IMG/VR virus record: IMGVR_UViG_648276650_000010
Span: 1-19,602 of that record
From: a virus
Taxonomy: Duplodnaviria; Heunggongvirae; Uroviricota; Caudoviricetes
Direction: 5' to 3' (one strand)
DNA length: 19,602 nucleotides
In this document: positions 1 through 18,654 of the stretch, piece by piece
Layout: each line of letters begins with the position of its first letter
Numbering within the stretch: the stretch's first letter is position 1
Position numbers and translations under genes: made by a program
Notes under the pieces: generated by a model
The model's input: only the letters and a program-made list of their open reading frames with translations
Database searches by the model: none
Told to the model about the DNA's origin: nothing

Positions 1-2400
1 TTACATCTTGCGTCTGTTGCTGTCTTGAACAATAGCCGCGATGTTCTGTTGCTGACGTTTTAATTGTTCAGCAAACCAACGCTGATCAGTAACATTCCCT
101 GAAACGTGAATACTTGCGTCGATTTTTGTTTCGCCTCCTGTTTTCTGATTATCTAAGAAGTCTTTCAAGTCGCCGTTTGTTCTTTCATCAACGACACGTT
201 CGCCACCATCAAGCAGCCATGTCCCTTCTCTTGGAACATTAGAAATACCATCGTGAGCCATACCAGTAAGATTCACTGATTTCATCTGCATGACTTGTCC
301 GATAACTCTTGCATAACTTGAAGCAGCCAGAGCGTAACCTAAAGGACCAGGATATTTTGCCATTGAAGCAGTTGCTGATTCATAAGCGTTTAACATACCG
401 CTTGCGATTGCTGTTCCTTTTTCAACTGCAAACATTGCTTGAGCAGCTTTAGAGTTTTCACCAGAAATACCGGCTATAACTGCACCCATACCAGAAGCAA
501 AACCGTTATACATCTGGAGTTTTGTCTGAATCTCAGTGAAAGTAATTGCTTTCGATTTAACCGCATAAGCTTGCTCAAGACGCTGTTTCTGTTTGAGATA
601 ATCTTCATAAGAAATCAATTGTCCGTCATATAGCTTTTGGTTCTGTTCTTGCATCTTCTGAAATTGTTCTTCCAACATTTTCTGTTGAATAGCCATTTTT
701 TCTTCATCAGTTGCAAAACCGATAGCATCAAGATTTTTAAGATTAGACATATTACCATCGCCAGCAGTCGCTTTAATTGCTTCAAGACGTTGCTGATGGT
801 CTTTCTGAATAGCTTCTAACTGAGAATTATATTCTTTCTGACCGATAAGCGATTGGGCTTTCTTAGCTTCGAGTTGTTCAAGTTGTTGTTGATATACGAT
901 TTCAAGACTCGACGTAATAGCACCGATTTCTTCAGGACTTGCCATAAGAGTTTGTTTGAATTCTTTGTTTGAATTCTCAAAAAGCATTTTACGACGTTGA
1001 TTTGCCTGTGTAGCGCTGATTATTCCTTTCTTTTCAAGTTCGTCGATTGTTTCAACAGCTTCTCTAACTTTACTGACTTGACTAGAAATAGTTCTGCCTT
1101 CTTGACTGAGAATTGCAGCATCAAGACTGGAAAGATTCTGTAACGCTGTCTGACGCTCTTGCATCATCTTATCATAAGCAGCTTTAGCTTCTCTTGCGGC
1201 TTGTTCCTGTAAGCGTTCCTTTTCTTTCTGAGCAGCTTTAGCTTCTCTTGCTATTTTGTCAGCTTCGCGTTTAGCTTTTTCAGCTTCTTTCTTAGCGTCT
1301 TCGGCAGCTAATGCATCTTTTTTTCTTTTCAGATCTGCGGCAGTTTTAGCATTTGCTTGCTGTAAACGAAGATTTTCATCAGCTTTGATTCTTGCTGCGG
1401 CAATATCTTTCTGAAACTTTTCTTCATCTGCAATTGCTTTTCTACGTTTAGCAAAACCCGCATTAGGCATCCATTCGCCCATTTTGTTAACAGTCGCTTC
1501 GGCAGCCCAATCAGAAAGAGCAGCATCAGGACGCAACGTGCTTAATGTTCCCATGAAGTCTAAAAAGTTACTTGCTGTCCAATCTTTATTAGCAATTTCG
1601 AACAGGTCGTTCATTTTCTTAACTAACGGACTCATAACGTTAACAGTTAGATTATCCAGATTGACGGTTAACGTTTTCATGTTTTCGTCGAATTCTTTAT
1701 ATTCTTTTGCTGTTTCGTTTGTGATATCAACAGAACGATTGTTAATAGCGTTTAATGCGTCTTGAGTTGAACCGTATTTTTCAAGAGTTGAAATCAAATG
1801 TGAAGCATCAGAAGCCATTGACTCCATTCCGTTCACGATTTCAGCTTGACTTGCACCAGCAGCTTTCAGGTCATAATAAGTCTGAACAAGCGCTTTAATA
1901 CCGCCTTGGGCATCGTTGACGTATTGTGTGTACTGTTCAAGACCAATACCCCATTCTTTGAGGTCGTCTGCAATACCGCCATGACCTTCTCTGAATGAAT
2001 CGCCAAGTTTATCTAATGTGTCTTTGTTTAAATCTCCGAAACGGTCAATCTCCATACCTGTTTCGCGAAATTCATTTTTAAGTTGTTGCAGATATTCAAC
2101 TGAAAGACCAGTTGATGTAGAGAGTTGATTGAGTTCTCTCGTTTTTTCTAACGCGGTATTAAGAACAGCTACACCTGCACCTGCTGCCATTCCTGCAATC
2201 CCCAGAGCTTGCATACCCTTGGACATTCCTGCAATACCTGAGATTCCGTTGTTGAGATTATTCAACGGTCCTGTCATATTACTAAAAAGTCCATTAGCTA
2301 CTGAATCGAGTTCATTCAGTTTCTTCATGGACTTGTCAATAGAAATTGATAGGCCTTTGTTATCTCCGTTAATCTCGACGTCATAACGTGATTTAGCCAT
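1..2400 (-). CDS. tail tape measure protein, 799 aa
   Basis: ATG at 2400-2398 preceded by a GGTG Shine-Dalgarno; stop TAA at 3-1. Protein is helical with an EAK/Q-rich low-complexity core and Gly/Ala-rich hydrophobic segments near both ends. Lies immediately downstream of the G/T chaperone pair and overlaps the T-frame stop by 8 nt. Assigned from composition and synteny. Confidence 0.75.
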   Translation of the reverse strand: MAKSRYDVEINGDNKGLSISIDKSMKKLNELDSVANGLFSNMTGPLNNLNNGISGIAGMSKGMQALGIAGMAAGAGVAVLNTALEKTRELNQLSTSTGLSVEYLQQLKNEFRETGMEIDRFGDLNKDTLDKLGDSFREGHGGIADDLKEWGIGLEQYTQYVNDAQGGIKALVQTYYDLKAAGASQAEIVNGMESMASDASHLISTLEKYGSTQDALNAINNRSVDITNETAKEYKEFDENMKTLTVNLDNLTVNVMSPLVKKMNDLFEIANKDWTASNFLDFMGTLSTLRPDAALSDWAAEATVNKMGEWMPNAGFAKRRKAIADEEKFQKDIAAARIKADENLRLQQANAKTAADLKRKKDALAAEDAKKEAEKAKREADKIAREAKAAQKEKERLQEQAAREAKAAYDKMMQERQTALQNLSSLDAAILSQEGRTISSQVSKVREAVETIDELEKKGIISATQANQRRKMLFENSNKEFKQTLMASPEEIGAITSSLEIVYQQQLEQLEAKKAQSLIGQKEYNSQLEAIQKDHQQRLEAIKATAGDGNMSNLKNLDAIGFATDEEKMAIQQKMLEEQFQKMQEQNQKLYDGQLISYEDYLKQKQRLEQAYAVKSKAITFTEIQTKLQMYNGFASGMGAVIAGISGENSKAAQAMFAVEKGTAIASGMLNAYESATASMAKYPGPLGYALAASSYARVIGQVMQMKSVNLTGMAHDGISNVPREGTWLLDGGERVVDERTNGDLKDFLDNQKTGGETKIDASIHVSGNVTDQRWFAEQLKRQQQNIAAIVQDSNRRKM
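1177..1251 (-). repeat. 21-nt exact direct repeat (agcagctttagcttctcttgc) at 1177-1197 and 1231-1251 inside the tape measure gene
   Basis: Read directly from the sequence. Copies are 54 nt apart (in frame) and encode the duplicated peptide AREAKAA within the EAK-rich region. Confidence 0.8.
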
Positions 2401-3099
2401 TATTCACCTTTTTTTGTTGTTTCAGTCTAACTTTGTCTAACAGAGCAGGGTCGAACATCGATTCAACAGCTTTCTTGCGTTTAAGCTCCTGTTGCTCTTT
2501 CTCTTTTTCGATTTCCTCTTGAGACTTAAACACAGAATCTTTAATAAGCAGGTGATCTTTCATGTTGAGCTTTTTCCTATATTCTTTTGTAAGATTAGGA
2601 TTATTAGCTTCGATAGTGTGGACCAAACGTGCTTGATAGAAATCGTTATAGACAGGACCTTGAGGTTCAATAAACGAGTCGAAAAACCATAGTTCGTAAT
2701 ACATCATCACGGACATCTGTTGAATTTCATCGTTAGATAATCCGCGACGTAGCATTGTTCTATACTGAAATGATTTAGCCCAGTTCTGTCTTAGTTCTTT
2801 TCCAGAACGTCTGATTTCTTACTGAGAATACTGGCAGTAGAAACAGCACTAGCAAGAGTTGAACGAACAGTGGTATAAAGTTTCTGAACTTGAGCGATTT
2901 CTTTAAAAACAGGAGTTCCGTCTTCGTGTTGAATACAATTCAGAATCATTCGGTCGTTACGTTCTTCTGTGTTTTCATTTTTGAAATAGAATTCACCGAA
3001 TTCAGATACGGTCATAGGACGAGCATAGAATTTAAAGCCGTTGATTTCTACTGGTTCGCGAGAAGGCGAAAGACTTGCTAACATTTCATCGAAATTCAT
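2393..3099 (-). CDS. predicted G-T fusion chaperone made by -1 programmed ribosomal frameshift
   Basis: The -1 frame is open from a TAA at 2821-2819 down to the stop at 2395-2393, overlapping the last ~8 codons of the G frame. The T-frame stop overlaps the tape measure start by 8 nt. The frameshift itself is inferred; the slippery site is non-canonical. Confidence 0.5.
2791..3099 (-). CDS. tail assembly chaperone, gpG-like, 102 aa
   Basis: ATG at 3099-3097 with an AAGGGA SD-like element; stop TAA at 2793-2791. Sits directly upstream of the tape measure gene, and a -1 frame ORF overlaps its 3' end (classic G/GT arrangement). N-terminal segment VEINGFKFYARPMTVSEFGEF resembles the lambda gpG N-terminus as I recall it. 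Confidence 0.65.
   Translation of the reverse strand: MNFDEMLASLSPSREPVEINGFKFYARPMTVSEFGEFYFKNENTEERNDRMILNCIQHEDGTPVFKEIAQVQKLYTTVRSTLASAVSTASILSKKSDVLEKN
2794..2821 (-). promoter_or_regulatory. candidate -1 frameshift window; best heptamer GGAAAAG at 2797-2803
   Basis: This is the only stretch where the G frame and the T frame are both open. Minus-strand sequence is AGT AAG AAA TCA GAC GTT CTG GAA AAG AAC TAA. It contains the A-AAG lysine slippery motif but not a canonical X-XXY-YYZ heptamer. Confidence 0.35.
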
Positions 3100-3133
3100 T
3101 TTTGTTTCCCTTTGTTGAGTTTTCTTTTATTTA

Positions 3134-3162
3134 TGAAAAAGGGAGCGCGAGGCTCCCTTTTG
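3134..3162 (-). terminator. intrinsic terminator (bidirectional-looking) after the 105-aa gene
   Basis: Stem GGGAGC (3141-3146) pairs with GCTCCC (3152-3157) around a 5-nt loop. Flanked by AAAAA (3136-3140) and TTTT (3158-3161), so it is followed by a U-tract on either strand. Located between the stop at 3163 and the G start at 3099. Confidence 0.65.
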
Positions 3163-3480
3163 TTATTTCCATTGAAAGAAATATCCGTACATTCTGAAAC
3201 CTTTGTGGATATATTCAATCATTCCTAAGTTCTTCGCTTCGGTCTCAAAAAATGGACCTTGCAGTCGAACTGTCTGTCCTAATTTGAAATGACAATTAGG
3301 TTTTTTCTTCTGTGTTGAAACAATAAAAACGTTCTTATCGTTGAACAGATATTTTTTAATTCGCTTATCTTTGATGTGTTCGCAACCGTAAGGAACAGTC
3401 ATTGACTCGGGATTAATCTCGTTAACGTAGATGTCGGCAAGTTCGTCTAATCTGTAAGTATCAAAATCGTGAATGTTCAT
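3163..3480 (-). CDS. hypothetical protein, 105 aa
   Basis: ATG at 3480-3478 with an AGGAGA SD; stop TAA at 3165-3163; followed by a terminator. No recognisable motif. Confidence 0.55.
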   Translation of the reverse strand: MNIHDFDTYRLDELADIYVNEINPESMTVPYGCEHIKDKRIKKYLFNDKNVFIVSTQKKKPNCHFKLGQTVRLQGPFFETEAKNLGMIEYIHKGFRMYGYFFQWK

Positions 3481-3497
3481 TTGTTCTCCTTTTGACT

Positions 3498-4040
3498 TTA
3501 TTTAGTACCCGCAACACGCTTAACGGTTTTGAATATATCGTCAGAGATTTGATTCCATGAACCCAGAGTTTTTCTTCTGTGTTGATTTTTCTTGAATACA
3601 GCAATTAAACGACGGTCTTGCTTTTTAACGTTAGTTTTAATGAGGATCGTTCGAGTTACGCCATCTTTTTTTTGCTTGACAGCTTCAAGATTATTTCTTG
3701 ATTTCAAGTTAGGAATGTTACCGAATTTGTTCTTTGAACCTCTTACACCAGTTGGAACAAACTTGTTAATTCCTTTGTTATCATCAATTAACGGAGCAAG
3801 ATAATCAGCCTGCTTGTCTTTGATGAATATTCTATTTCGTGACCCGTTCTGATCGTATCTGAAACTGAAACCTACTGCGTTCTTAGTGAAATTAACTGGT
3901 CCATCGACTCGTCTGTTGATTTTTCTTTGCAACTCAACAGAAGCGAGTTTAGACGCTTTGGTTACTTTCTTACTGAACACGTCAGATTCTTTGATTCGCC
4001 ATTTTTCAAGGTCTTTCATAACATCTTTTGCTTTTGCCAT
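3498..4040 (-). CDS. hypothetical strongly basic (Lys/Arg-rich) protein, 180 aa
   Basis: ATG at 4040-4038 overlaps the stop of the upstream 65-aa ORF (TAATG coupling). Composition suggests nucleic-acid binding; too basic to be a typical tail tube protein. Function unknown. Confidence 0.6.
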   Translation of the reverse strand: MAKAKDVMKDLEKWRIKESDVFSKKVTKASKLASVELQRKINRRVDGPVNFTKNAVGFSFRYDQNGSRNRIFIKDKQADYLAPLIDDNKGINKFVPTGVRGSKNKFGNIPNLKSRNNLEAVKQKKDGVTRTILIKTNVKKQDRRLIAVFKKNQHRRKTLGSWNQISDDIFKTVKRVAGTK

Positions 4041-4237
4041 TAGTTCACTCCTGACATCAGAAGCGTCCCAAATGTTTTTATCTGTTCTTCGCTGATAAGA
4101 ATCATTTTAGGTGCTTTAATATCGAAAGCTTGCAGAACAGGAACAGCAACAGTGTTATAAGTTATAGTAACGAGAAATAGAACAATAAGATAATCTTTAG
4201 CGTGTTTTGCCAATGCTTGGAGATATTTCATTTTCAT
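4040..4237 (-). CDS. small membrane protein, 65 aa, one predicted TM helix
   Basis: ATG at 4237-4235 with a GGTG SD 5 nt upstream. Hydrophobic segment YLIVLFLVTITYNTVAVPVL. Overlaps the 3' end of the endonuclease gene by 41 nt and is coupled to the downstream 180-aa gene. Confidence 0.45.
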   Translation of the reverse strand: MKMKYLQALAKHAKDYLIVLFLVTITYNTVAVPVLQAFDIKAPKMILISEEQIKTFGTLLMSGVN

Positions 4238-4673
4238 ATTTCACCTTTATTTGGTTTGAGTAGACTTTTTCAAGCTCCTTTTTCGTTTTAAGGTTTGAAC
4301 CTGTAATAGCTTTCATCTCAGAAAGATTTTTTCGAGAGAACGCCTTCTTTAAATCAGGAATAAGTTGTGGATGCGTAGGATTGTCTGAGTAGTCTTTTTC
4401 AAGATACTGAACAAGATTCTTCAAAAACTCGATGTAGTCAATTTTCCCATCGAGACCCGAACGTTTAAACTGATGTTTTATTCTGCCCTCTAGGACGTTT
4501 GCTTGAGCGATTAATAATCCTCTGCATCTGCCTGCGTTAGAGCCTGTTAATATATGGTCATGGTCAAGATGGGCTTTATTAACTTCATGAATCTTTATGC
4601 CAGTTAAAGCACAAAGACCTTTTTGCTTTTGAAAGAGTTCTTGCTTATAAATCGGAATCTCTTTTCTTTTCAT
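4197..4673 (-). CDS. T4 endonuclease VII (gp49)-like nuclease, 158 aa, with degenerate zinc-binding site
   Basis: ATG at 4673-4671 with a GAGG SD; ATGA overlap with the upstream 94-aa gene. The segment HLDHDHILTGSNAGRCRGLLIAQANVLEGRIKHQFKRSGLDGKIDYIEFLKNLVQYLEKDY aligns closely with my recollection of T4 endo VII (HLDHDHELNGPKAGKVRGLLCNLCNAAEGQMKHKFNRSGL...). The catalytic Asp/His/Asn/Glu positions appear retained, but three of the four Cys Zn ligands are replaced (by T, I, A). Confidence 0.8.
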   Translation of the reverse strand: MKRKEIPIYKQELFQKQKGLCALTGIKIHEVNKAHLDHDHILTGSNAGRCRGLLIAQANVLEGRIKHQFKRSGLDGKIDYIEFLKNLVQYLEKDYSDNPTHPQLIPDLKKAFSRKNLSEMKAITGSNLKTKKELEKVYSNQIKVKYENEISPSIGKTR

Positions 4674-4954
4674 TTTCCTCTTAGAACTGCTAGGTCGATA
4701 TCTAGCTTTGCTGTTCTTCCTTCTAAATTCTTCAAATCAGATTTGACCTCTCGAAATTCATCCTGTTGTCGTGTTATATCGCTTATAAGCGAAGCATCTT
4801 TTGCGTCATTAACGGCTATGCTTTTTTCGATGTCTGAGAAACGTTTCTCAAGGTCAATTCGTTTTTCATTGTTTGATTTAATTTCGGCATAAACCCAAGC
4901 CAAGAAACCTCCTAGAGCACCCAAGATGGAAATGATCAGTGCTATATCGACCAT
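4670..4954 (-). CDS. membrane-anchored coiled-coil protein, 94 aa
   Basis: ATG at 4954-4952 with two AAGGAG-type elements upstream. N-terminal hydrophobic helix (IALIISILGALGGFLAWVYA) followed by a charged heptad-like region. Function unknown; i-spanin-like or exclusion-like topology. Confidence 0.6.
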   Translation of the reverse strand: MVDIALIISILGALGGFLAWVYAEIKSNNEKRIDLEKRFSDIEKSIAVNDAKDASLISDITRQQDEFREVKSDLKNLEGRTAKLDIDLAVLRGK

Positions 4955-4999
4955 CTTGAATCTCCTTTTTAAAAGACCTCCTTGTCTTTATTTAGAACG

Positions 5000-7900
5000 T
5001 TATTGTTGTTTACTGATAAAGTAAACTGCTCTTGCTGCGGTCGCATGATTCAAGTCAGCACCGTAACTCAAATCAACAGCTTGTCCCGCATAGATAATGC
5101 CTGTACCACCGTTTGAACCACTCATTGCACTGGTAACTGTTCTTACGATTTCTTGACCGTTCGACATATTAATCCATGCAGTTCCGTAGCCCCAAGCACC
5201 ACCGGAATAAGTTCTGCCTGAAATCGAAAGGTTTGGAATAGAAATTACTCTGTTCCAGTTAACAGCAGGAATATGAACTGTTGTCCACGGATCTATATGA
5301 CCCATTTTGATAACGTCACCTTCAATTCTGTCAGCGTATACAGTTCCTGTGAAATAACCTGAACCGCCTCTGATTTCACCTGCGAAATAACCAGAATCTG
5401 CTTGAATGTTACCTCTGATATTAACGTTTTGGAAAGAAGCCCAACCGTCTTTTCTGATTGTCCAACCTTGAGTACCACCGGAAGGGAACCAGTTATCAGA
5501 AGATATTTCATAAGCAATCTGTGCTGAACCGATCTGAGCATTACCAATTTTCGCAGTAGTAATCGCACCGTTTTCAATCTTCGCGTTGTTAATAGCACCG
5601 TTTTGAATCTTAGCGTTGTTAATAGAAGCATCTGCAATCTGTGCTGAACCGATAGAAGCATTACGAATCATTGCAGAATCCATATAAACTCTGTTATCAG
5701 CGACCATAAACGGAGCAACAGCACCCGCAGGAGTATTGTTATTCGTTATAGCGATTTTATCAGCGTTAAAAACAATACTAGACTGTTTTGAACCGTCAGG
5801 ATTCTTATTAGCCAGCATACTGATACCAGCAACAACACCGTCGGCATTAGTCTGAACTGCCCATTTGCTATTAATCGTTCCTGTTAAGTCGTCAACGCTT
5901 GCTTTTGATTCTTGACTAACTGTTGCAATAGCTGTGTTTGTTTCAGCTTTCAATTGATTAATTGAACTTGCGGTTGCTTGTCTATCATCAGCTTGAGTTT
6001 TTTCAACTTTCGTAATAGCCGAGTTAAGTTTTCCATCAAAGTTAGATTCTTGAATACTGATAGCCTGATTGATAGCGCCATTAGTTTCATTAGTAATCTG
6101 AGTATGAAGTTCGGTGTTTTTCGTCGTGATAGTCTGATTTAATTCAGTAGTAACTTTTTGCTCGGATGCTGTAACTTTCGTATCAGTGTATTTGTTAGCG
6201 AGGTCTAATGCTTCATCGATAGCACCATCAACACGTTTATCCAAATCAAGCAAATCGTTTAACTGTTCTTTCATATCGTCAGTCCACGGAATATCCCATT
6301 TCATATCGATAAACTTCGATTCTGACCAAGTAATCTGGTCTTGTCCGAATACGTCATACCAAGCTGAACGAACATAGAATTGACCATCTTCTAATGGAAA
6401 ATTATCTAAGAACGGACTTGAACTTGAATAAACGTGAACAATTTCATTAAAACTCTGGTCTTTCGCAATATGAACGATTGTGCCTTTGAAGTCAGGAACT
6501 TCAGGCTTATTATCGCGTGGGTCATTCCAAGAGCACATCAGCATTCCAGGACCATTCGAAGCTGTGAAACCTTGAATAGCAGGAGCTTGATTGTTCTTAA
6601 CAGTAATAACAGCAGGATCTGACTTCATACCAGCGTGACCGTATGCAGTAACAGAAACTTTCAATTCACGACTCAGACCATTACCCAAGTTCATATTAAA
6701 GTCATATACAAAACCTAAGTCTTTAGTCTTGTAAATTACAGGACGCTGACCTTCAATTTTGATTTCGTAATATTGAAAAACTTCACCGAATGTCTGTAAC
6801 GTGTCGTCAACATAGAATTTCTGTGCGCTCTGGTCGTCCCAGGCGAATTCAAATTGAGTCTTGTTAGTGGTGTATTGATTTTCAACTGCGTTCACTAGGT
6901 GCAGTCCTGTAACGACTGGTAAGTTATACATAACCTCAGGGTTAACGTTATTGACATAAACCCAATCTGAACGATACACAACACCAGAAGCACAAACACG
7001 AATATCAAATTTCTGATTAGGGTCAAGACTCATAATCAAGAAATAATCGCCTGATGTGAAACCTGCTTGAATCCAAGAGTTCTTACCAGCAAGACTATAC
7101 TGAATATAATAACCTGCGCGATTATAATCAGGTTCAGACGTCCATTGAACTTTCAGAGTTCTTCCTAAAGCTGTTTCAGCAACTGCTTTAACTGTCAGAT
7201 TCTTAGGAGCAATCAGAACAGATTTATTAGGAATGTTGCTTCCTGTGTTATCAGGGTCTTTCGCGTAGTCAAGATTGGTATAAACTTCTTCGATATATTC
7301 AGAAGCAGTAATAGTAACGATACCAGCAGCACCTTTATTCATCGAACGATCGATATTAGTAATACGCCATAATGAATTCACAAGTTCCAGTTCAGAGAAA
7401 TTAACTCTGATAACATCCCAGACCTGTGCGGTATAAGCATCAGCAGTTGAAAAACTAATAACTTGCTTTAACAGAGATTTGTTACGTTCGATTGAAGCAA
7501 TTTTATCCAACTGAGATTTTGATTTCACGAATCTGTAACTGATATCTTTAGCGATAATACGTTTATCTTTCGCGATTGTTCCATCATTTGTTACGTCAGA
7601 CGGATAACGCAGAACTTGGTCAGAATAGTCAATCGACGGATCTTGATATTTCACGTTCAGAGTATTGTAATAATTCTCAGAACCGCCATCGTTTAAGCTA
7701 ACAGTACCAGCGTTAATATTATCTTCGTTGAAGTCATATTGAACAACATCAGGTCCATCGATTCTGCATGTTACTTTACCGAAAGTCTCTGTGATAATAC
7801 CGTTAAATGCACCTGCAAGCTGAGTTAAGTTTTCTTTGAATGAACCGTTCGGGTCAGTTGCACCATCAGAAAATAAACTGTTCAGTTTTGCATATCGAGC

Positions 7901-8689
7901 AGCTTCTTTAAAACTATCAAGGTCGATTTTATCAATCTGAATTCCAAGACCGTATCTATCATTTGTTAGATAATCAACAATCTGACTCGGACCGTTGTTC
8001 GAGGAAACGCGTTCTCCTGTGTTCAGATCTGTAATCAAACGTCCTCTAACGTCAACAGATACTTGACTGTTAGGTTGCAGGATATCAGCTTGGTTTTGAA
8101 GGTCTGAGTTACGTTTGCGCATAACAACACAACAAGCAGCGATGTTATTACCAGTAGCAGAATCAGGCCAGCCAGCATCTGAATTTCCTAGATATTTCTG
8201 AGCAAGAGTAAAAACGTGACCGTATGGCTTACCAGTTGAGAATTCAACTTCAACATATTGCTGATATTCAGCAGCGATTGAACCTTTCGGAAGAACACCG
8301 TCTTTATAAACGCCATCAAGTAAGATTTTCTGATTATCCATATAAAGGTTTTTGAAGCTATCAACTTCACCTTCACAGATTGCAAAGATCTGAACCAAAT
8401 ATGTCGTATCAACGCCAACAGCTTTCCAAACGTTAATCGTACCTGTACGCTGTTCACCATAGATAATAGGAATAACACTTGATGGATCTGACGTTGTTCC
8501 TAATGTCGTTGCTGTGTCTGTGCTGTTAAATCGGGGAACGTTCTGCGCCATCTGAGTTGACATCAAAGCAGAAACAGCAGCAACAGCGACACCAATACCA
8601 ATTGCCAAAGCAAGAGCAGCACCCGCAGCGTAAGCAGCAGCAGCCGCGGAAGCACCTGCGATAATTGCACCAATAGCTACAATAGCCAT
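5000..8689 (-). CDS. lambda J-like tail tip / host specificity protein, 1229 aa, with hydrophobic N-terminal extension
   Basis: ATG at 8689-8687 overlaps the upstream stop (TAATG). The region PIIYGEQRTGTINVWK...YLVQIFAICEGEV matches the conserved N-terminal motif of J-type tip proteins; the C-terminal region (FMVADNRVYMDSAMIRNASIG..., NIRGNIQADSGYFAGEIRGG...) resembles the lambda J C-terminal receptor-binding region as I recall it. Confidence 0.75.
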   Translation of the reverse strand: MAIVAIGAIIAGASAAAAAYAAGAALALAIGIGVAVAAVSALMSTQMAQNVPRFNSTDTATTLGTTSDPSSVIPIIYGEQRTGTINVWKAVGVDTTYLVQIFAICEGEVDSFKNLYMDNQKILLDGVYKDGVLPKGSIAAEYQQYVEVEFSTGKPYGHVFTLAQKYLGNSDAGWPDSATGNNIAACCVVMRKRNSDLQNQADILQPNSQVSVDVRGRLITDLNTGERVSSNNGPSQIVDYLTNDRYGLGIQIDKIDLDSFKEAARYAKLNSLFSDGATDPNGSFKENLTQLAGAFNGIITETFGKVTCRIDGPDVVQYDFNEDNINAGTVSLNDGGSENYYNTLNVKYQDPSIDYSDQVLRYPSDVTNDGTIAKDKRIIAKDISYRFVKSKSQLDKIASIERNKSLLKQVISFSTADAYTAQVWDVIRVNFSELELVNSLWRITNIDRSMNKGAAGIVTITASEYIEEVYTNLDYAKDPDNTGSNIPNKSVLIAPKNLTVKAVAETALGRTLKVQWTSEPDYNRAGYYIQYSLAGKNSWIQAGFTSGDYFLIMSLDPNQKFDIRVCASGVVYRSDWVYVNNVNPEVMYNLPVVTGLHLVNAVENQYTTNKTQFEFAWDDQSAQKFYVDDTLQTFGEVFQYYEIKIEGQRPVIYKTKDLGFVYDFNMNLGNGLSRELKVSVTAYGHAGMKSDPAVITVKNNQAPAIQGFTASNGPGMLMCSWNDPRDNKPEVPDFKGTIVHIAKDQSFNEIVHVYSSSSPFLDNFPLEDGQFYVRSAWYDVFGQDQITWSESKFIDMKWDIPWTDDMKEQLNDLLDLDKRVDGAIDEALDLANKYTDTKVTASEQKVTTELNQTITTKNTELHTQITNETNGAINQAISIQESNFDGKLNSAITKVEKTQADDRQATASSINQLKAETNTAIATVSQESKASVDDLTGTINSKWAVQTNADGVVAGISMLANKNPDGSKQSSIVFNADKIAITNNNTPAGAVAPFMVADNRVYMDSAMIRNASIGSAQIADASINNAKIQNGAINNAKIENGAITTAKIGNAQIGSAQIAYEISSDNWFPSGGTQGWTIRKDGWASFQNVNIRGNIQADSGYFAGEIRGGSGYFTGTVYADRIEGDVIKMGHIDPWTTVHIPAVNWNRVISIPNLSISGRTYSGGAWGYGTAWINMSNGQEIVRTVTSAMSGSNGGTGIIYAGQAVDLSYGADLNHATAARAVYFISKQQ
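5514..5653 (-). repeat. intragenic tandem and direct repeats in the J-like gene
   Basis: Exact 20-nt direct repeat gcaatctgtgctgaaccgat at 5514-5533 and 5634-5653 (120 nt apart, in frame), with 30-nt-period near-repeats at 5561-5620 between them. Encodes a periodic motif (IGSAQIA ... NNAKIQNGAINNAKIENGAITTAKIGNAQ). Confidence 0.8.
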
Positions 8690-9105
8690 TATTTTCTCCT
8701 GTTAAAAATTAATTCAAAATTAAAATCGTTGACGTTTATCAGTTGATATTTATTTTCATGTTCAACTAATGCTCTATTATTAAAAACGATAGATGCAACG
8801 TAATAGACACGGTTTTTATGTTTTTTCTTAATTAAGATAACCGAGCCTGTTTCTATAGTTTCTGATTTCTCAAGATGCGTTTCACACGCTTCGAGAACGT
8901 TATTAAAACCAGTTAGCTCTTTGCAAATCTTGAGACCTTCAGGAATACTCGTGTATTTGTCTTTTAATTTGTCTGTGTATTCAGTAGCACAAACAAGGTC
9001 GATATATTCAGCAACAAGGATATTACAGTCGTTTTGACCGAAAACGTGTTGCTGATTGATATAGCGGTTAAGTAATTTTGATAAGTCAGCTTGAAATTTA
9101 AACAT
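8689..9105 (-). CDS. hypothetical Cys/His-containing protein, 138 aa, translationally coupled to the J-like gene
   Basis: ATG at 9105-9103 with a GAGGTGA SD; stop overlaps the J start. Motif GQNDCNILVAEY plus downstream His residues could fit a papain-like fold (speculative). Position suggests a tail tip assembly role. Confidence 0.5.
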   Translation of the reverse strand: MFKFQADLSKLLNRYINQQHVFGQNDCNILVAEYIDLVCATEYTDKLKDKYTSIPEGLKICKELTGFNNVLEACETHLEKSETIETGSVILIKKKHKNRVYYVASIVFNNRALVEHENKYQLINVNDFNFELIFNRRK

Positions 9106-9132
9106 GTTTCACCTCTGACTTTATTTAGAGCC

Positions 9133-9161
9133 AAAAAAAGACCCCTTGCGGAGTCTTTTTA
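9133..9161 (-). terminator. intrinsic terminator after the 158-aa gene
   Basis: On the minus strand: GACUCC-GCAA-GGGGUC (6-bp stem with one U-G wobble, GNRA loop) followed by seven U. Stem at 9140-9155, A-run at 9133-9139 on plus. Begins 7 nt after the stop at 9163. Confidence 0.7.
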
Positions 9162-9162
9162 A

Positions 9163-9639
9163 TTAATCACTTGATGTCAAATCAACAACACCAGAAACAA
9201 CAGGACCACCATCAACACTCAGTGTCATTGTCAGACCTTGAACTTCTGATTCACCGCCATTATGAACAGCGCTTGACAAGAAGCCGTTATAAACTTTTGC
9301 AACACCCAGTTTTTTAGTAGCATCAATCCAATAAACGATTTTAAACTGACCACGTTTACCATCTTCCGCAAGCTTAATCAGAACATCATGAACGCTTTCT
9401 GGAATATAGTTAACGGTCAAGTCGATATCAGGAACAGAGCCACGACCAACCAGTTTACGGGAGTATTTGTGAGAGAAGTTAGGAGCTGTAATAACTTCGC
9501 GTTCAATACCCGTAGAAGGGAATGCACCAGTTTCAGGAATTTCAACAAACTTTTCTGAATTCAGATCGGTGTTTGCAATTTCTGAGTTATAGAACACACT
9601 GACGTAAGAGCCAGCAAAAATATCAAATTTGTCTGCCAT
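9163..9639 (-). CDS. hypothetical acidic beta-rich protein, 158 aa, probable virion structural protein
   Basis: ATG at 9639-9637 with an AGGAAA SD; stop TAA at 9165-9163. No TM segment or signal peptide. Bracketed by terminator-like hairpins on both sides (stand-alone transcription unit). Fold and function not assignable from sequence alone. Confidence 0.55.
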   Translation of the reverse strand: MADKFDIFAGSYVSVFYNSEIANTDLNSEKFVEIPETGAFPSTGIEREVITAPNFSHKYSRKLVGRGSVPDIDLTVNYIPESVHDVLIKLAEDGKRGQFKIVYWIDATKKLGVAKVYNGFLSSAVHNGGESEVQGLTMTLSVDGGPVVSGVVDLTSSD

Positions 9640-9680
9640 TTTTAATTTCCTATTTGAGTTAATATAGTTTATTTAGCAAA

Positions 9681-9699
9681 GGGGATTTCTCCCCTTTTT
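9681..9699. terminator. terminator-like hairpin directly after the tail fiber stop
   Basis: GGGGA (9681-9685) pairs with TCCCC (9690-9694) around a 4-nt loop. On plus it is followed by TTTTT (9695-9699); on the minus strand only by UUU, so minus-strand termination is probably partial. Confidence 0.5.
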
Positions 9700-9700
9700 G

Positions 9701-12700
9701 TTATTTAGCTTCAAGTTCTTTAACGCGAGCACTTAATTCCTTGATAGCATTAACCAGCAACGCGTTTACAGCAGCAGAGTTAACACCAAGAATTTCGTCA
9801 GGTCCGAAAGAACTAACAGCTTCTGGTAATACTTCTTTCAGTTCTTGAGCAATAATACCTGCTTCACGAACTTCGAATGAATATTCAGTTTTGACTAAAT
9901 CAGATTTCTTATCGTATACGTAACCAGTAAGTTTCTCGACTTTATCAACTGCGTTTTCAATTTCTTCAAAGTTCGATTTCAGACGTTTATCAGAAGTGCT
10001 AACCCATTGGATCGCATTTGCTGTTCCATTACCGAGGAATAGATAGTCTGCACCACCAATGTGAAGTGCAGCCTCGGGAGCAGAACTACCCGGATTATAA
10101 ATGTCCATCGCAGCACCGTATTCTGTGCCCCAATGAACATGTTTCCAGATATTAATACATTTATCACGAGTCTGAGCTTCAACAATCATTCCCGCAGGAC
10201 GATCACGCCACGCTGACCACTGCGGCCAACCGTCAACGACACCTTGAATCATCGCATTGCTTGCCCCGGTTCTAACGTTTCCAACATAAACACCGCGAGA
10301 CTCATTATGGGTGTTAATCGTAATTGACCGATCAATTGTCAAACCAGCTGTGTTAAAGGTTGCGATTTGAATACCATTAGTAAAAATGCTTAAGTTTCCG
10401 TCCGTAACTTGTCGAATACCTGTATCGTTATCACCAAACGCGATTGAGTTTCCACCTAGTACGTTGTCCGTGTTAATACCAAAACTTGTTAAACGATTTG
10501 TTTCAACAGAAGGAGTATTAATTTTTCCAGGAACAGCAAAACGACCATCGATATCAAATTCATAATTAGCCATTTTACCGAACGTCGATTCTTCTTTCGT
10601 CCCAACACGAAGAATTCCTTTGCCCCATGAATTAGCTGGTCCTCTAATAGTTCCTAATTCAACAACAGTAGAGAATCCGTGTCCTACGGAAACAGAGTTC
10701 ATCGAATATCCGGGATAATAATCACTTTCACCAGCAACTGCTCCGAAGTTAATCTGCATAGGAGCATTTTGTCTCCATTGATTAGCGTAAGCATGATCAT
10801 TGGTTGCTGCCCATCTTGCACCATCAATTTGAATTGTATTATGCTGAATATCCATCGCGGTATTAGTACCAGTCTGAACCGTCACGGATCCGTTAGTTCT
10901 AAGAGTAACACCAGATGACGTAGAGAAATCATTTCTCATATTCTGAGACCAGACAATATCGAGATTCTCACTTGTCTTGCCAAGAATCCAGGTATTATTG
11001 CGACCGTCCATATTGCCAGACATATAACTTGCCTGATTCGACGCAGGAATATTCAACTGAATAGCATTAGATTCGCCGTTGACAGAAACACCACTTGCAA
11101 GATTCAATCGACCATTGGTGTTTAATGAACCCATCCAATATTCAGGAGTATCACCATGAAACCAACATATAGAGTTATCCAGCCTATCGTCAGGATGATT
11201 AGCCATTGCCAACTCATGATAAATGGATCCAGCACCAACGGCTCTAACTTTTCTTAAATGATTTGATTGTTGCTCAGGAGTGTTCCAGTCGGGTAAGCTT
11301 TCCGAGTCATACCATCCGTAAGGCTTATTATTATAAATCGTTTTATAGAAACTTGCAGGGCCAGCAACACCAAGACCTTCTTTAGTATCAATATAAGTTC
11401 TGCCTGAACCTCTCAGATAATGATTATATTTTCCACCATTAACTAATCCGAAATAAGTCGTGGCGTCACCAATGTTATTACCGTCGGTTGTCGTATCGAT
11501 ATTAATTAATGAATAACCTTCAGGAGCCATCAGATTCGAATCACCATCATCACTTCTGAAACGGAAATGAGTTTTTCTATTAAAGTAGTTTTCAGATCCT
11601 GCAATAGAAGCTGTTACAACGTTATTTGAATAGAAGTTTAACCATCCGTCTTCTCTCCATTTAAAACCAGTGTCGGAATCACCAATCGCGATAGAGTTTA
11701 AACCCAGTGAATTTCCAACGGCAAAGTTGCTTGCAACGGACATTAAAGGAGTTGTTACTGCATCAGTGATTCTAGCTTGACCTGAAATATCAATTGACAT
11801 TCCTCTGCCTGTTTTTCCCCAAGTCATGGTCATTAGATCTAATGCGTCGGTTCCTTCGTTAGCATCACGACGAAATAACAGTCGATCATCCGTATCCGTT
11901 GCGTATGCAATTTGATGAATAGTCTTTGAAGTTCTGCCGTGGTTTTCAATACTCAGAACATCACCGTTATTACCAGCAGGTGTAACTTTCAAAGTTCCTG
12001 CGTATACATTACCAGCAGCATGAACAGAAGGAACAGTTAAGTCGCCAGTCATCGTGTCGCCAGCTTTATTAACTTTGGTGTCAATCATGTCTTTCAGAGT
12101 CTGATTATCAACAGTCAAACGGTCATTAACTGCTTTAATCTTTTCGTCAGCATCAGCTTTATTCGCATCAACTTTCGTATTAATAGCCGTGTCGTTCTGG
12201 TCAACTTTTGAATTCAGATTATCAACGCGAGTGTTAATAGCAGCGTCGTTAGCATCAACTTTCTGTTCGAGTTTCGTCAGGTCAGCACTTGAACCTGTTT
12301 GAACTTTGCTGATTTCAGAATCAACGTAATCTTTACGCGTAGCGCTATCAGGAGCAACAGGAGCAGCAGGCAAAGATAACTGACCATTACCGTTAAGCAC
12401 GAAGTCAGAACTCTCTCCTGTACCTTTTCCTTTCGCTACCGTAACACGAAGTTCACCTTTAGAGTCTGTCTGAGCAGGAGAACTAATACGTGCTTTTGCT
12501 TTGTCGTGTTCATCAGCAAAAACAATATCGCTTTTATCAAGATTTTTTAAAGTCAGATTAGAATCGGATTCAATATCACTTGCTTTAATTTTTCCAGTAA
12601 AGGTCTGACCGCCTTCAACAACAGCATCAGCACCATTACCGATGTTAATAACAGCGTCACCGAATTTAGTAAAAATCTTTTTATCGGCTAAGTTAATAGC

Positions 12701-12784
12701 GATTTCACCATCAAGCATGTTTTTCGCTTCTGGCTTTCTTCCGGCGACGTCTGTTCTATAATGTTTAACTTTATTATTTGCCAT
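9701..12784 (-). CDS. tail fiber protein, 1027 aa, with C-terminal intramolecular chaperone (peptidase S74-type) domain
   Basis: ATG at 12784-12782. N-terminal fibrous repeats (VDxNDxAINTxVD) and a DTMTGDLTV motif typical of phage fibers. C-terminal WVSTS-DKRLKSNFEEIE...YVYDKK...EAGIIAQELKEVLPEAV...NAIKELSARVKELE matches the auto-cleaving chaperone domain seen in endosialidase-type tailspikes and L-shaped fibers. Confidence 0.8.
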   Translation of the reverse strand: MANNKVKHYRTDVAGRKPEAKNMLDGEIAINLADKKIFTKFGDAVINIGNGADAVVEGGQTFTGKIKASDIESDSNLTLKNLDKSDIVFADEHDKAKARISSPAQTDSKGELRVTVAKGKGTGESSDFVLNGNGQLSLPAAPVAPDSATRKDYVDSEISKVQTGSSADLTKLEQKVDANDAAINTRVDNLNSKVDQNDTAINTKVDANKADADEKIKAVNDRLTVDNQTLKDMIDTKVNKAGDTMTGDLTVPSVHAAGNVYAGTLKVTPAGNNGDVLSIENHGRTSKTIHQIAYATDTDDRLLFRRDANEGTDALDLMTMTWGKTGRGMSIDISGQARITDAVTTPLMSVASNFAVGNSLGLNSIAIGDSDTGFKWREDGWLNFYSNNVVTASIAGSENYFNRKTHFRFRSDDGDSNLMAPEGYSLINIDTTTDGNNIGDATTYFGLVNGGKYNHYLRGSGRTYIDTKEGLGVAGPASFYKTIYNNKPYGWYDSESLPDWNTPEQQSNHLRKVRAVGAGSIYHELAMANHPDDRLDNSICWFHGDTPEYWMGSLNTNGRLNLASGVSVNGESNAIQLNIPASNQASYMSGNMDGRNNTWILGKTSENLDIVWSQNMRNDFSTSSGVTLRTNGSVTVQTGTNTAMDIQHNTIQIDGARWAATNDHAYANQWRQNAPMQINFGAVAGESDYYPGYSMNSVSVGHGFSTVVELGTIRGPANSWGKGILRVGTKEESTFGKMANYEFDIDGRFAVPGKINTPSVETNRLTSFGINTDNVLGGNSIAFGDNDTGIRQVTDGNLSIFTNGIQIATFNTAGLTIDRSITINTHNESRGVYVGNVRTGASNAMIQGVVDGWPQWSAWRDRPAGMIVEAQTRDKCINIWKHVHWGTEYGAAMDIYNPGSSAPEAALHIGGADYLFLGNGTANAIQWVSTSDKRLKSNFEEIENAVDKVEKLTGYVYDKKSDLVKTEYSFEVREAGIIAQELKEVLPEAVSSFGPDEILGVNSAAVNALLVNAIKELSARVKELEAK

Positions 12785-12796
12785 TTTCTTTATCCG

Positions 12797-13822
12797 TTAA
12801 AATACTCCTGCGTCTAAGGTTTCTCCTAACGCTACACAATTAATCTCTAATGGCGTTGGTTTATTACTTGGAGAATAGACTTCTTTGCCTTTGACCTTGA
12901 CAGAAGTTGAGTTAATTTCATTACTATTTAGAGCCAAGATTTCACCTTGTGGCGCAGAAATCTTTTTACGAACGTTCAGATATTCCTGAATAGTCAAAGA
13001 TCCTTTGAGTTCTCCACCAGTAATAGGCAAAGCATTAATATCTTCAGGAGTTGGACGTTCAAGTTCTGTATAGACTTTGACCCACGGAGATTCAGTAACA
13101 GTTTCACCGCTTTGTTGTTTGTTTCTGATTCTGATGCTTGGATTACCGACTGACGAACCAATAAGCTCCCAACCTTGACCATCAGGATGCTGAATAGCCA
13201 TAGCAGACGTGCCAGAGTTATAAGGGTTATCGCTGTTTGTTGCATCGACTGTTACACATCTGTTACCAGTTAATAATCCTAAGTCTTTAACGCCTGCGAT
13301 TTCTTCTGTACCAGCACCAATACCATAATCGCCAACGTTTAACGGAACTGAGAATTCAGCAAAACCTGTAAACAACTGACCATCAGGAGAAAGATTAAAA
13401 GTTGTTGTAACGACTGAGTTAGCCGAACCTGATGTTTCTTTCTTCGTTACATAAGCATTAAAAATATGATAAAGACCAGCATCATTATCTTTCTTTGTTT
13501 CTCCATCGATAACATAAAGACTTCTGAATCTAAGGAGTTTCTTTTCCATAAGAGCTTCATCAAGCAACTGATAAACTGGGTCAGAACTGTCTTCAAATAA
13601 GCTTATTGAAGTGTCGTTAATTGTTACGTCACCTGAAAGTTTCGTTGTGAAATCGGTTCTGTAATCTTCTAGTGTCTGAACTTCTTTTCTAAATCCGATA
13701 ACAGGGAATGCAGCCAGTTTATCAGTGCTTACATAACCTGGGTCGTTATATCCTGGGATTTCAACGATTAGCGGATTAACTGAAACTCTGACGTTATTTC
13801 CTACAAAAATATCGTTTGTCAT
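12797..13822 (-). CDS. major tail protein, gpV-like, with C-terminal Ig-like extension, 341 aa
   Basis: ATG at 13822-13820; stop TAA at 12799-12797. Position is right after the gpU-like gene. The segment NDTSISLFEDSSDPVYQLLDEA...LLRFRSLYVIDG resembles the lambda V pattern [23 protein letters not shown]...AYKIRFPNG as I recall it; C-terminal ~100 aa is beta-rich and Ig-like. Confidence 0.6.
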   Translation of the reverse strand: MTNDIFVGNNVRVSVNPLIVEIPGYNDPGYVSTDKLAAFPVIGFRKEVQTLEDYRTDFTTKLSGDVTINDTSISLFEDSSDPVYQLLDEALMEKKLLRFRSLYVIDGETKKDNDAGLYHIFNAYVTKKETSGSANSVVTTTFNLSPDGQLFTGFAEFSVPLNVGDYGIGAGTEEIAGVKDLGLLTGNRCVTVDATNSDNPYNSGTSAMAIQHPDGQGWELIGSSVGNPSIRIRNKQQSGETVTESPWVKVYTELERPTPEDINALPITGGELKGSLTIQEYLNVRKKISAPQGEILALNSNEINSTSVKVKGKEVYSPSNKPTPLEINCVALGETLDAGVF

Positions 13823-13829
13823 TTTAGTC

Positions 13830-14228
13830 TCACATTAAGTATTCGAAAGTTAAAATTATTTGTGCGCTAACATGACCATTTGATGCTTCACTATCATAAT
13901 CAGTGAAGCTCGAACTTGGATAAATCTTATCGATTTTAAATGGGATAAGTTTTTCATGATTAGCTTTAATAGAAATTAAGTCGTAAACGGCTTTGTGAAC
14001 GCCTGTTTCGCTTTTCTCTGAGAAAATATCAATCGTAATACTAAGAACACTTGCAAGTTTCGATTGCAAACCGATTCGCGTATATTCTTCTGTCATTCCT
14101 GGAATCATTACTTGAACAGGTTCTTTAACACCAGTTGTGAAAGCGTTTTTGACGTATTTCAGATTAAGTTCTTTAACGATTATTTCTTCCAGAGCGCGTT
14201 TAATTCCTAAACGTGGCAGATTAGTCAT
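13830..14228 (-). CDS. tail terminator protein, gpU-like, 133 aa
   Basis: I place the start at the internal ATG at 14228-14226, which overlaps the upstream stop by 8 nt; the ORF-track start at 14306 would overlap the upstream gene by 86 nt. C-terminus DYDSEASNGHVSAQIILTFEYLM resembles the lambda gpU C-terminus (DY..DDAG..SADLTYVITYEM) as recalled. Confidence 0.6.
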   Translation of the reverse strand: MTNLPRLGIKRALEEIIVKELNLKYVKNAFTTGVKEPVQVMIPGMTEEYTRIGLQSKLASVLSITIDIFSEKSETGVHKAVYDLISIKANHEKLIPFKIDKIYPSSSFTDYDSEASNGHVSAQIILTFEYLM

Positions 14229-14517
14229 AGAATGATGTCTCCTGTTCGCCTTTAAATGCCAGATAACAATTAGCAAGTCCTGAACCATCATTAACAAGAT
14301 ACGCAATGGTATACAGAATCTCGTTTAATAGAACTTCATCTTCTTGCTTAACTTTATTGATATCAGCGGTTATATAGATTGTCTCGCTTACTTGTCCGTT
14401 ATCGTTGTTAATCTCAATTTCAACAATACCGAGTTCATCAGAATCGTTAATTTTGATTTTCTGTCCGAAACGAGTTAAGAAAGACTGTTTTTGTTTTTCT
14501 GAATATGGAAAAATCAT
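14221..14517 (-). CDS. head-tail joining (neck) protein, 98 aa
   Basis: ATG at 14517-14515 with an AAGGAGA SD; first gene after the capsid terminator. Small and acidic, in the position of a head completion/connector protein. No specific family assignable. Confidence 0.5.
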   Translation of the reverse strand: MIFPYSEKQKQSFLTRFGQKIKINDSDELGIVEIEINNDNGQVSETIYITADINKVKQEDEVLLNEILYTIAYLVNDGSGLANCYLAFKGEQETSFYD

Positions 14518-14552
14518 GTTGTCTCCTTTTTATTATATTTAGTCCAGAAACG

Positions 14553-14576
14553 AAAAAAGGACTCCCGAAGGAGTCC
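14553..14576 (-). terminator. strong intrinsic terminator after the major capsid gene
   Basis: On the minus strand: GGACUCC-UUCG-GGAGUCC (perfect 7-bp stem, UUCG tetraloop; stem 14559-14576) followed by UUUUUU (14553-14558 on plus). Lies about 50 nt downstream of the capsid stop. Confidence 0.85.
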
Positions 14577-14597
14577 TCTGATTATTCAGCAGTTTCA

Positions 14598-14627
14598 GCT
14601 TTCGCTTTCGCTTTTGCTTTTGCTTTT
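14598..14627. repeat. five tandem hexamers (GCTTTC x2, GCTTTT x3 on plus; AAAAGC/GAAAGC on the mRNA) immediately 3' of the capsid stop
   Basis: Read directly from the sequence. Starts 1 nt after the stop codon (14629-14631) and ends before the terminator hairpin. Confidence 0.8.
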
Positions 14628-14628
14628 C

Positions 14629-16533: not shown

Positions 16534-16548
16534 TACCAGTCCTCTGTT

Positions 16549-16580
16549 GGAGCGTCTTTCGACGCTCTTTGTTTTTCTGA
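16549..16580. promoter_or_regulatory. stable stem-loop in the portal-capsid intergenic region, terminator-like only in plus orientation
   Basis: GAGCGTC (16550-16556), loop TTTC, GACGCTC (16561-16567), followed on plus by TTTGTTTTT. On the minus-strand mRNA it forms a GAAA-loop hairpin 17 nt upstream of the capsid SD with no U-tract after it. Confidence 0.45.
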
Positions 16581-16592
16581 ATGTATTTAGTG

Positions 16593-18143: not shown

Positions 18144-18634
18144 GATGGATTCGTGAACCTCGCTTTAATAGTAACAATCGGAGATTTACCGTTTGCCATT
18201 TGTTCTGACTTAATCAGATTTGCTAAGTTAGCTAAAAGTCGTTTTCGAGCCATAAGCAGCGAATCAAGCGTTTCATAAACGAATGATTTACCGTTAATAC
18301 TCATTTGTTGAATAGCTTCTTCGTTACTTGTCAGACGATACTGAATAACTGTATCGATATCGTTAATCATTTCTCTGAGTTGTTCTCTTTTCGTTTTTGA
18401 AACGAATGGTGATTTCACTTTGATAATGCTGTTACTGATAAGCGCACCTTCATAGAGAACAACAACAGAAAAAGTTCCTTCGATAAAATCTGATGTGTCC
18501 ACCGAGATATTCGCTGGACAATCAGTTTGAGAAAACAATTTAGTTTCAGTTGAGCCTATGGAGACTGTTGCACCTTCAGGATTATAAACAGCGAGTTTTT
18601 CACCGATGTAAATTTCTGAATTTGATTTTTGCAT
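18140..18634 (-). CDS. gpW-like head-tail joining protein with ~85-aa N-terminal extension, 164 aa
   Basis: ATG at 18634-18632 with a GGAGAA SD; lies between terminase and portal as lambda W does. The C-terminal ~75 aa (INGKSFVYETLDSLLMARKRLLANLANL...) resemble lambda gpW ([23 protein letters not shown]...) as recalled. The N-terminal beta-rich half has no counterpart in 68-aa gpW. Confidence 0.55.
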   Translation of the reverse strand: MQKSNSEIYIGEKLAVYNPEGATVSIGSTETKLFSQTDCPANISVDTSDFIEGTFSVVVLYEGALISNSIIKVKSPFVSKTKREQLREMINDIDTVIQYRLTSNEEAIQQMSINGKSFVYETLDSLLMARKRLLANLANLIKSEQMANGKSPIVTIKARFTNPS

Positions 18635-18654
18635 TGAGTTCTCCTTTCTTATAT

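Follow-up and report, generated by a model that had tools for sequence, protein, structure and literature searches.

A putative programmed -1 frameshift at a conserved A_AAG tetranucleotide in the G/GT tail assembly chaperone genes of a caudovirus

The 19,602-nucleotide stretch of caudovirus DNA analyzed here (IMG/VR record IMGVR_UViG_648276650_000010, positions 1 to 19,602; hereafter "the window") carries a pair of overlapping open reading frames (ORFs) directly upstream of its tape-measure gene, in a part of the window where all genes lie on the minus strand (Table 1). The first ORF is gene G, and the second, the T frame, is in the -1 frame relative to G. Judging from the comparison of this locus with its relatives, we consider it likely that the two constitute a lambda-type tail assembly chaperone pair, G/GT, in which a programmed -1 frameshift at A_AAG (2800..2797), in the context CUG_GAA_AAG_AAC_UAA, would give rise to the longer product GT.

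Table 1. Features of the G/T region of the window
Feature	Position	Strand	Basis or remark
Gene G, tail assembly chaperone, 102 amino acids (aa); ATG 3099, stop TAA 2793-2791	2791..3099	minus	ORF list, phrog_344
Region open in both the G frame and the -1 (T) frame, 25 nt	2794..2818	minus	scripted check
T-frame TAA closing the overlap on its 5' side	2819..2821	minus	sequence
Heptamer G_GAA_AAG, not canonical; GAA 2802-2800 in the P site, AAG 2799-2797 in the A site	2797..2803	minus	
A_AAG tetranucleotide, proposed slip site	2797..2800	minus	sole element common to all relatives
T-frame coding after the proposed shift, 134 codons, GAA 2797-2795 to GGC 2398-2396; stop TAA 2395-2393	2396..2797	minus	translation, alignment
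Internal T-frame ATG (ORF 2393..2755)	2753..2755	minus	ORF list
Tape measure protein gene, ATG 2400-2398, running off the window at base 1	1..2400	minus	phrog_13674, tblastn

Gene G, the T frame and their overlap

The G protein matches the PHROGs family phrog_344, "tail assembly chaperone," with E=1.2e-6, and seven of eight family members compared match it too, the best with 1.2e-8. The Pfam family PF16459 (Phage_TAC_13) was matched by six of the eight G relatives (best E=8.5e-7), while its score against the G of the window itself, 19.7 bits with E=1.1e-3, falls below the 28.8-bit cut-off. The ORF that follows matches phrog_13674, "tail length tape measure protein" (E=3.8e-70), and tape-measure genes are also matched by tblastn, and the names G and T are appropriate for a tail-assembly-chaperone pair that precedes the tape measure. 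Other searches were less informative. A single-sequence structure model of G had a mean predicted local distance difference test score (pLDDT) of 55, too poor for a fold search, and PDB sequences searched with a profile of the G alignment yielded nothing meaningful, the best hit being an unrelated nuclease at E=0.046. In PHROGs no family was found for the T part of the window, and one of eight T relatives matched "tail protein." A search of a large protein database with the predicted GT fusion returned 292 candidates that share words with it, none of them significant, and yielded neither an in-frame "Rosetta-stone" fusion nor a deep alignment. The two parts of the predicted fusion differ in isoelectric point, with that of G being acidic (pI 5.2) and that of T basic (pI 9.2). 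At the other end of the T frame, the string ATGGCTAA contains both the start of the tape-measure gene (ATG 2400-2398) and the stop of T (TAA 2395-2393), which overlap, and a Shine-Dalgarno sequence, AAGGTGA, is situated just upstream; this arrangement suggests that translation of the tape-measure gene is coupled to the rare ribosomes arriving in the T frame, besides being initiated in the ordinary way.

A sequence-only reading of the window had claimed that G and T are both open only between the T-frame TAA at 2821-2819 and the G stop at 2793-2791, and a scripted check confirmed this. The 0-frame codons of the overlap, AGT AAG AAA TCA GAC GTT CTG GAA AAG AAC TAA, had been read exactly to the base, as had the string GGAAAAG at 2797-2803. 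GAA-AAG had also been singled out as the only plausible shift site, although it does not conform to X_XXY_YYZ, and the script agrees: no X_XXY_YYZ heptamer exists within the 25-nt overlap (2818..2794), and G_GAA_AAG (2803..2797) is the only slippery element in it. Inside this heptamer, A_AAG is the sole motif of the overlap that permits cognate re-pairing in the A site; other shift sites within the 25 nt were rejected, with cognate re-pairing being possible at none of them. The AAG codon (2799-2797) is the second-to-last sense codon of G, separated from the terminal TAA by the single codon AAC. The presence of one such tetranucleotide is suggestive, not compelling. In-frame A_AAG occurs at 27 of the 6184 codons in the 17 genes of the window, where Lys is encoded less often by AAG (86 codons) than by AAA (359), and the probability of finding at least one in eight codons is about 3.4%. 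A lone occurrence is merely mildly unusual by chance, and the weight comes from its conservation.

Conservation of A_AAG and coding of the T frame

Relatives of the locus were collected from IMG/VR, scanned first with G and afterwards with G and T-part alignments, from species-representative genomes, and from metagenomes. The T frame was located by script via its conserved FDSFIEP core, and the overlapping upstream ORF was then found. Among the 75 related loci fetched, several are the same contigs fetched twice; 68 loci were tabulated, which together with one more, L082, make 69. The T parts of the tabulated loci represent 40 distinct proteins, which group at 70% T-protein identity into 12 clusters, and because the loci are related by descent the locus counts given below are not counts of independent events. 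Across T, the window is matched identically by the metagenome contig UMJI01010978.1 (L058), the scan of species-representative genomes returned one metagenome-assembled-genome contig only, and one large clade consists of chromosomal prophages of Escherichia coli, found in 53 of 5426 complete genomes. When isolated phages were searched, megablast with the G-T region gave no match and tblastn with T matched only Escherichia phage DCP80, which is also the closest tape-measure match (39% identity); named, experimentally studied relatives are thus absent. DCP80 (L001, PQ671644.1) is filed under Straboviridae/Tevenvirinae/Gaprivervirus, and its tail module, consisting of G, T and a tape measure of ~800 aa homologous to that of the window, looks siphovirus-like; all seven of its features in the tail region are annotated as "hypothetical protein."

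T lies in the -1 frame relative to G in every one of the 68 tabulated loci. An alignment of homologous chaperone genes, proposed along with the sequence-only reading as a way to see which nucleotides are conserved, revealed that A_AAG is kept in all 69 loci and that the P-site codon varies: an in-frame N_NNA_AAG is located in the overlap at the Lys homologous to 2799-2797 in the 68 tabulated loci and in L082, and A_AAG is present in 12 of the 12 T clusters. In 46 of the 68 the overlap is only 13 nt long, offering four candidate codons. The heptamers found are G_GTA_AAG (46 loci), G_GAA_AAG (13, the window among them), A_GAA_AAG (five), A_GTA_AAG (three) and T_TTA_AAG (one, in DCP80). The last is the only canonical heptamer of the 68, and its occurrence at exactly the shared Lys ties this position to a recognized slippery heptamer. 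The residue before the shared Lys can be Glu, Val or Leu, and the residue after it in the T frame can be Glu, Val, Ala or Gly. What is invariant in the relatives is the A at the third base of the preceding codon, the AAG codon for Lys, and the G that starts the next T-frame codon. The Lys codon is AAG although this phage favors AAA. From this pattern of substitution, the target of selection looks to be the nucleotides AAAG and not the proteins.

The T frame also bears a coding signature from this point on. The alignment of the T proteins of the window and eight relatives starts exactly at the shared Lys and has a mean column identity of 59%. Over the 14 codons that extend from the slip site to the position of ATG 2755, the seven members of the GAA_AAG clade show 67 synonymous and 122 non-synonymous differences in the T frame, compared with 23/153 and 8/170 in the other two frames. 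When the window is compared with its 92%-identical relatives, the same 14 codons contain three differences (AGA/AGG, GCT/GCA and AGA/CGA), all of which are silent in the T frame. In the relatives, the first T-frame ATG is found anywhere from 6 to 79 codons after the slip site, and in L015 and L061 it comes past the conserved FDSFIEPQ core; the Met encoded by ATG 2755 is replaced by Ile or Leu in L012, L015, L018 and DCP80. T has no conserved start, and its frame evolves as coding sequence from the slip site onward.

Proposed slippage on A_AAG and alternative readings

We infer the slippage itself, as well as its timing and efficiency, from the two-frame geometry, the conservation of A_AAG, the T-frame coding signature that begins at the slip site, and the absence of a conserved T start. 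In a minority of ribosomes, those whose P-site GAA is occupied by tRNA-Glu and whose A-site AAG by tRNA-Lys (anticodon UUU), the tRNA-Lys would un-pair from AAG and re-pair one base back on AAA, and the tRNA-Glu would either free the third base of its codon or re-pair near-cognately on GGA (G:C, G.U, A:U). Translation would resume in the T frame with GAA CUA AGA and would yield a predicted GT protein of 235 aa and 27.8 kDa, composed of G residues 1-101 and 134 T-frame residues, with a predicted junction where ...SDVLEK is followed by ELRQNWAK and a predicted Asp-N junction peptide DVLEKELRQNWAKSFQYRTMLRRGLSN. The other ribosomes would decode AAC and terminate, leaving the 102-aa G. After the -1 move, the P-site tRNAs of the relatives would face AGA, GGU or AGU, which pair worse than the GGA of the window, and for this reason re-pairing in the P site is not the conserved unit. 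The shift frequency is predicted to be low, somewhere between a fraction of one percent and a few percent, because neither an RNA structure nor a Shine-Dalgarno-like element that could stimulate it is evident. A low frequency is, at the same time, the regime wanted for GT relative to G, as the chaperone is needed in small amounts.

The search for a stimulator, which at A_AAG sites would be a hairpin or pseudoknot 5-9 nt downstream or a Shine-Dalgarno-like sequence upstream, covered both sides of the site. When the 42 nt downstream were folded in 10 lineages, the minimum free energies ranged from -0.2 to -5.2 kcal/mol and the z-scores from -0.63 to +1.54, which is no better than shuffled sequences, and the z-scores of 90-nt folds were mostly near 0. 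A weak hairpin that starts 7 nt after AAG in the window (-3.8 kcal/mol, z -0.63) is absent in the other clades and was rejected. A hairpin at 2754..2700 (minus strand, inside T), whose 97-nt fold reaches -22.6 kcal/mol with a z-score of -2.25, was also rejected as a stimulator: it is ~43 nt downstream, is found in near-identical relatives only, and shows no covariation. On the upstream side, the strongest anti-Shine-Dalgarno duplex that the window can form in the 21 nt before the site has -2.4 kcal/mol, vs a background mean of -2.0. Shine-Dalgarno-like strings occur in some relatives only and not family-wide, and a stimulator of this type was rejected for the window. In L010 and L011, which are 92% identical to the window, the string TAAGGA precedes A_AAG by 14 nt, with a duplex energy of -5.7 kcal/mol against the anti-Shine-Dalgarno sequence; this distance is close to that between A_AAG and the Shine-Dalgarno element in dnaX. 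The window has TAAGAAA (2821-2815) at this place, and the level of frameshifting may differ between very close relatives. In the prophage clade, GAGGT abuts the slip site, which is reportedly the wrong spacing for -1 stimulation. Rfam gave no match at the slip site. In sum, neither a downstream hairpin nor an upstream Shine-Dalgarno-like stimulator was found, in a search that was not exhaustive for pseudoknots and long-range pairings. The sequence-only reading had proposed either an atypical recoding mechanism or a low-efficiency site. The lack of a hairpin, Shine-Dalgarno-like or Rfam element found at the site is in keeping with low efficiency, but an atypical mechanism is not called for, given that A_AAG is a documented -1 motif.

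Several considerations weigh against programmed slippage as described above. Constraint at the protein level could account in part for Lys being conserved in both frames. The relatives are an E. coli phage and E. coli prophages, and the tRNA-Lys set in the host of the window phage may differ from that of E. coli; the window contains no tRNA genes. Moreover, GAA is read by a tRNA-Glu with mnm5s2U34, whose wobble is restricted, and GUA, the codon of most relatives, by a wobble-prone tRNA-Val with cmo5U34. As a P-site codon, GAA probably stands outside the favorable NNA_AAG class. In the IS3 reporter context, tetramers lacking a stimulator hardly exceeded the background, with 0.147% vs 0.112% (PMC4066793). 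With a bare A_AAG near background and no stimulator found, the yield of GT may be very low unless there is an unrecognized stimulator.

One alternative would give the same product with other timing. The tRNA-Lys might slip from AAG to AAA in the P site after translocation, while the A site is empty and a slow stop promotes the shift (a "shifty stop"). We regard this as unlikely, though it has more in its favor than the other alternatives considered here. The 0-frame stop comes directly after AAG in 54 of the 68 loci (as G_GTA_AAG_TAA or G_GAA_AAG_TAA) and one codon further on in 11 others, of which the window is one, and slippage on Lys codons in the P site and at hungry codons has been described (PMC10861913, PMC5009743). 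In the window itself, however, the codon after AAG is an ordinary sense codon, AAC, and in four loci the stop is 4 to 11 codons from AAG (11 in L020, 10 in DCP80 and 4 in L021), meaning that adjacency of the stop is not obligatory. The adjacency could simply reflect the shortening of a doubly constrained overlap. Somewhat more doubtful still is a stimulator-free -1 "shifty stop," in which tRNA-Lys would slip on A_AAG because the 0-frame stop is in or next to the A site and the kinetics of termination would set the ratio of G to GT. If true, it would represent a programmed -1 signal in a virion-assembly gene whose product ratio is not set by RNA structure.

It is improbable that T is instead made alone, either through initiation at ATG 2755 or through termination-reinitiation after the G stop, with no G-T fusion. 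ATG 2755 does exist, 36 nt after the G stop, and RefSeq presents the T homologue of the E. coli prophage as a separate coding sequence that starts from an internal ATG. The 18 nt before ATG 2755 (TCATTTCAGTATAGAACA) contain no Shine-Dalgarno sequence, however, and the Met is not conserved, with the first ATG being as much as 79 codons downstream. In addition, the 14 codons upstream of ATG 2755 bear the T-frame coding signature, and the T frame is open back to A_AAG in every locus. The sequence-only reading had named independent translation from ATG 2755 as a scenario that would refute a frameshift, and it is contradicted by the lack of conservation of this Met and by the coding nature of what precedes it. 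Programmed -1 slippage of tRNA-Lys on A_AAG during translation of G is the interpretation we favor. A frame change already present in the RNA or DNA, through transcriptional slippage on the four-A run at the site (GAAAAG) or an indel of assembly or sequencing, can practically be dismissed, since the run has a length of just A4 here and A3 in the clades with GTA_AAG, which is too short when programmed transcriptional realignment sites have runs of >7 A or >8 T (PMC3711429), and since the two-frame arrangement recurs in 69 loci that were assembled independently, 53 complete E. coli genomes among them, as an assembly error would not.

Tail module, annotation and comparison with known systems

A tail tube homologue, 50% identical to the "phage tail tube protein" of an E. 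coli prophage, is encoded at 9639..9166, and ~6 kb of other genes separate it from G. In the E. coli prophage L057 the tube gene is adjacent to G, ~700 bp upstream (4936-6435 in L057 vs 3163-9163 in the window). The ~6-kb block of the window comprises a 138-aa ORF, a J-like central fibre protein of 1229 aa, a 94-aa ORF, an endonuclease VII gene, and ORFs of 65, 180 and 105 aa. The endonuclease gene, which is T4 endonuclease VII-like and sits amid the tail module at 4197-4673 (minus strand), matches PF02945 with E=1.1e-10 and has a weak match to the dimerisation domain. Between the ORF 3480..3163 and the G start at 3099, the minus-strand intergenic sequence at 3137-3161 holds a GC-rich palindromic hairpin, AAAGGGAGCCTCGCGCTCCCTTTTT, and then a T run. 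The element resembles an intrinsic terminator and lies ~40 nt before the G start codon, within what is presumed to be a single tail operon.

Existing annotation does not describe the pair as frameshifted. In L057 (6127-6815; E. coli MEI003 prophage, NZ_CP071263.1), the RefSeq/PGAP name of the G homologue is "cytochrome," T stands as a coding sequence of its own ("hypothetical protein"), and no ribosomal slippage is annotated; among the records examined, one annotated prophage record and the DCP80 region, none has a frameshift annotation for the G/GT pair. Frameshift finders based on heptamers would miss the whole chaperone family. The family also constitutes a natural series, in which A_AAG is fixed, the P-site codon (GAA, GTA or TTA), the -1 base and the distance to the stop vary, and no member has an evident stimulator. 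Such a series could be used to gauge frameshifting on a bare tetramer in a real gene, and any help that the proximity of a stop provides. Knowledge of recoding itself is left unchanged; the pair would represent an unannotated G/GT frameshift of the known A_AAG type.

The closest parallel is the G/GT pair of lambda, where a -1 shift takes place at G_GGA_AAG (Levin, Hendrix & Casjens 1993; Xu, Hendrix & Duda 2004, 2013, 2014; summarised in PMC5009743) and produces G and GT at 30:1 (PMC5009743); in pairs of this type the fusion, at a few percent of G, is needed for tail assembly. As in lambda, an overlapping ORF pair is found just before the tape measure, the second ORF is in the -1 frame and startless, and the shift would occur at the end of G. 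The A-site half of the signal, A_AAG for Lys, is identical, and the heptamers differ at one base, with A at the third position in the window and G in lambda. This difference makes the P-site half G_GA vs G_GG, and, unlike that of lambda, the heptamer of the window is not X_XXY_YYZ and leaves tRNA-Glu without cognate re-pairing (central G.U). The window also departs from lambda in that its G and T have no detectable similarity to the named lambda families, with G matching phrog_344 and PF16459 instead, and in the ~6 kb that separate the tail tube gene from G.

A_AAG signals outside lambda provide the nearer model for the site itself. Z_ZZN is the minimal -1 site, and A_AAG has been singled out among such sites, with G_CGA_AAG being used by IS1222 and A_CGA_AAG in Bacillus subtilis cdd (Atkins et al. 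2016, PMC5009743). In E. coli, AAA and AAG are both decoded by one tRNA-Lys whose U34 is modified (anticodon mnm5s2UUU; PMC5009743), and single-tRNA slippage in the A site on A_AAG has been described (PMC10861913). The efficiency of NNA_AAG depends on the two 5' bases through the wobble of the P-site tRNA, and wobble-prone tRNAs favor shifting (PMC5009743, PMC10861913). A comparison of all 16 tetramers in E. coli put A_AAG far ahead, at 5.6% when the IS3 pseudoknot was present (Sharma et al. 2014, PMC4066793), and among IS1 and IS3 elements 87 have tetramers vs 403 with heptamers (PMC4066793). Like the tetramer sites of IS1222, cdd and the IS1 and IS3 elements, the present family has an in-frame A_AAG as its only constant, a variable NNA codon before it, and no cognate re-pairing in the P site, and the same move of tRNA-Lys is proposed. 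The IS cases, in contrast, need a downstream pseudoknot, a hairpin or an upstream Shine-Dalgarno sequence to attain useful levels, none of which was detected here. The P-site codon is GAA or GTA rather than the CGA of IS1222 and cdd, and the gene encodes a virion-assembly chaperone, not a transposase.

A literature search on GGAAAAG and GGTAAAG as frameshift sites found nothing relevant. The PRFect survey (McNair et al. 2024, PMC10885494) states that most annotated chaperone frameshift overlaps are without XXXYYY and lists alternatives including "twofour," a motif that by its name would fit GGAAAA. Unlike the motifs of that survey, which are untested and drawn from inspection of annotations, mostly of actinophages, the constant unit in this family is A_AAG: the GG varies (AG, TT), and GTA replaces GAA. 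By analogy with the systems above, the putative slip site of the G/GT pair is a member of the known A_AAG/NNA_AAG class and does not amount to a new mechanism.

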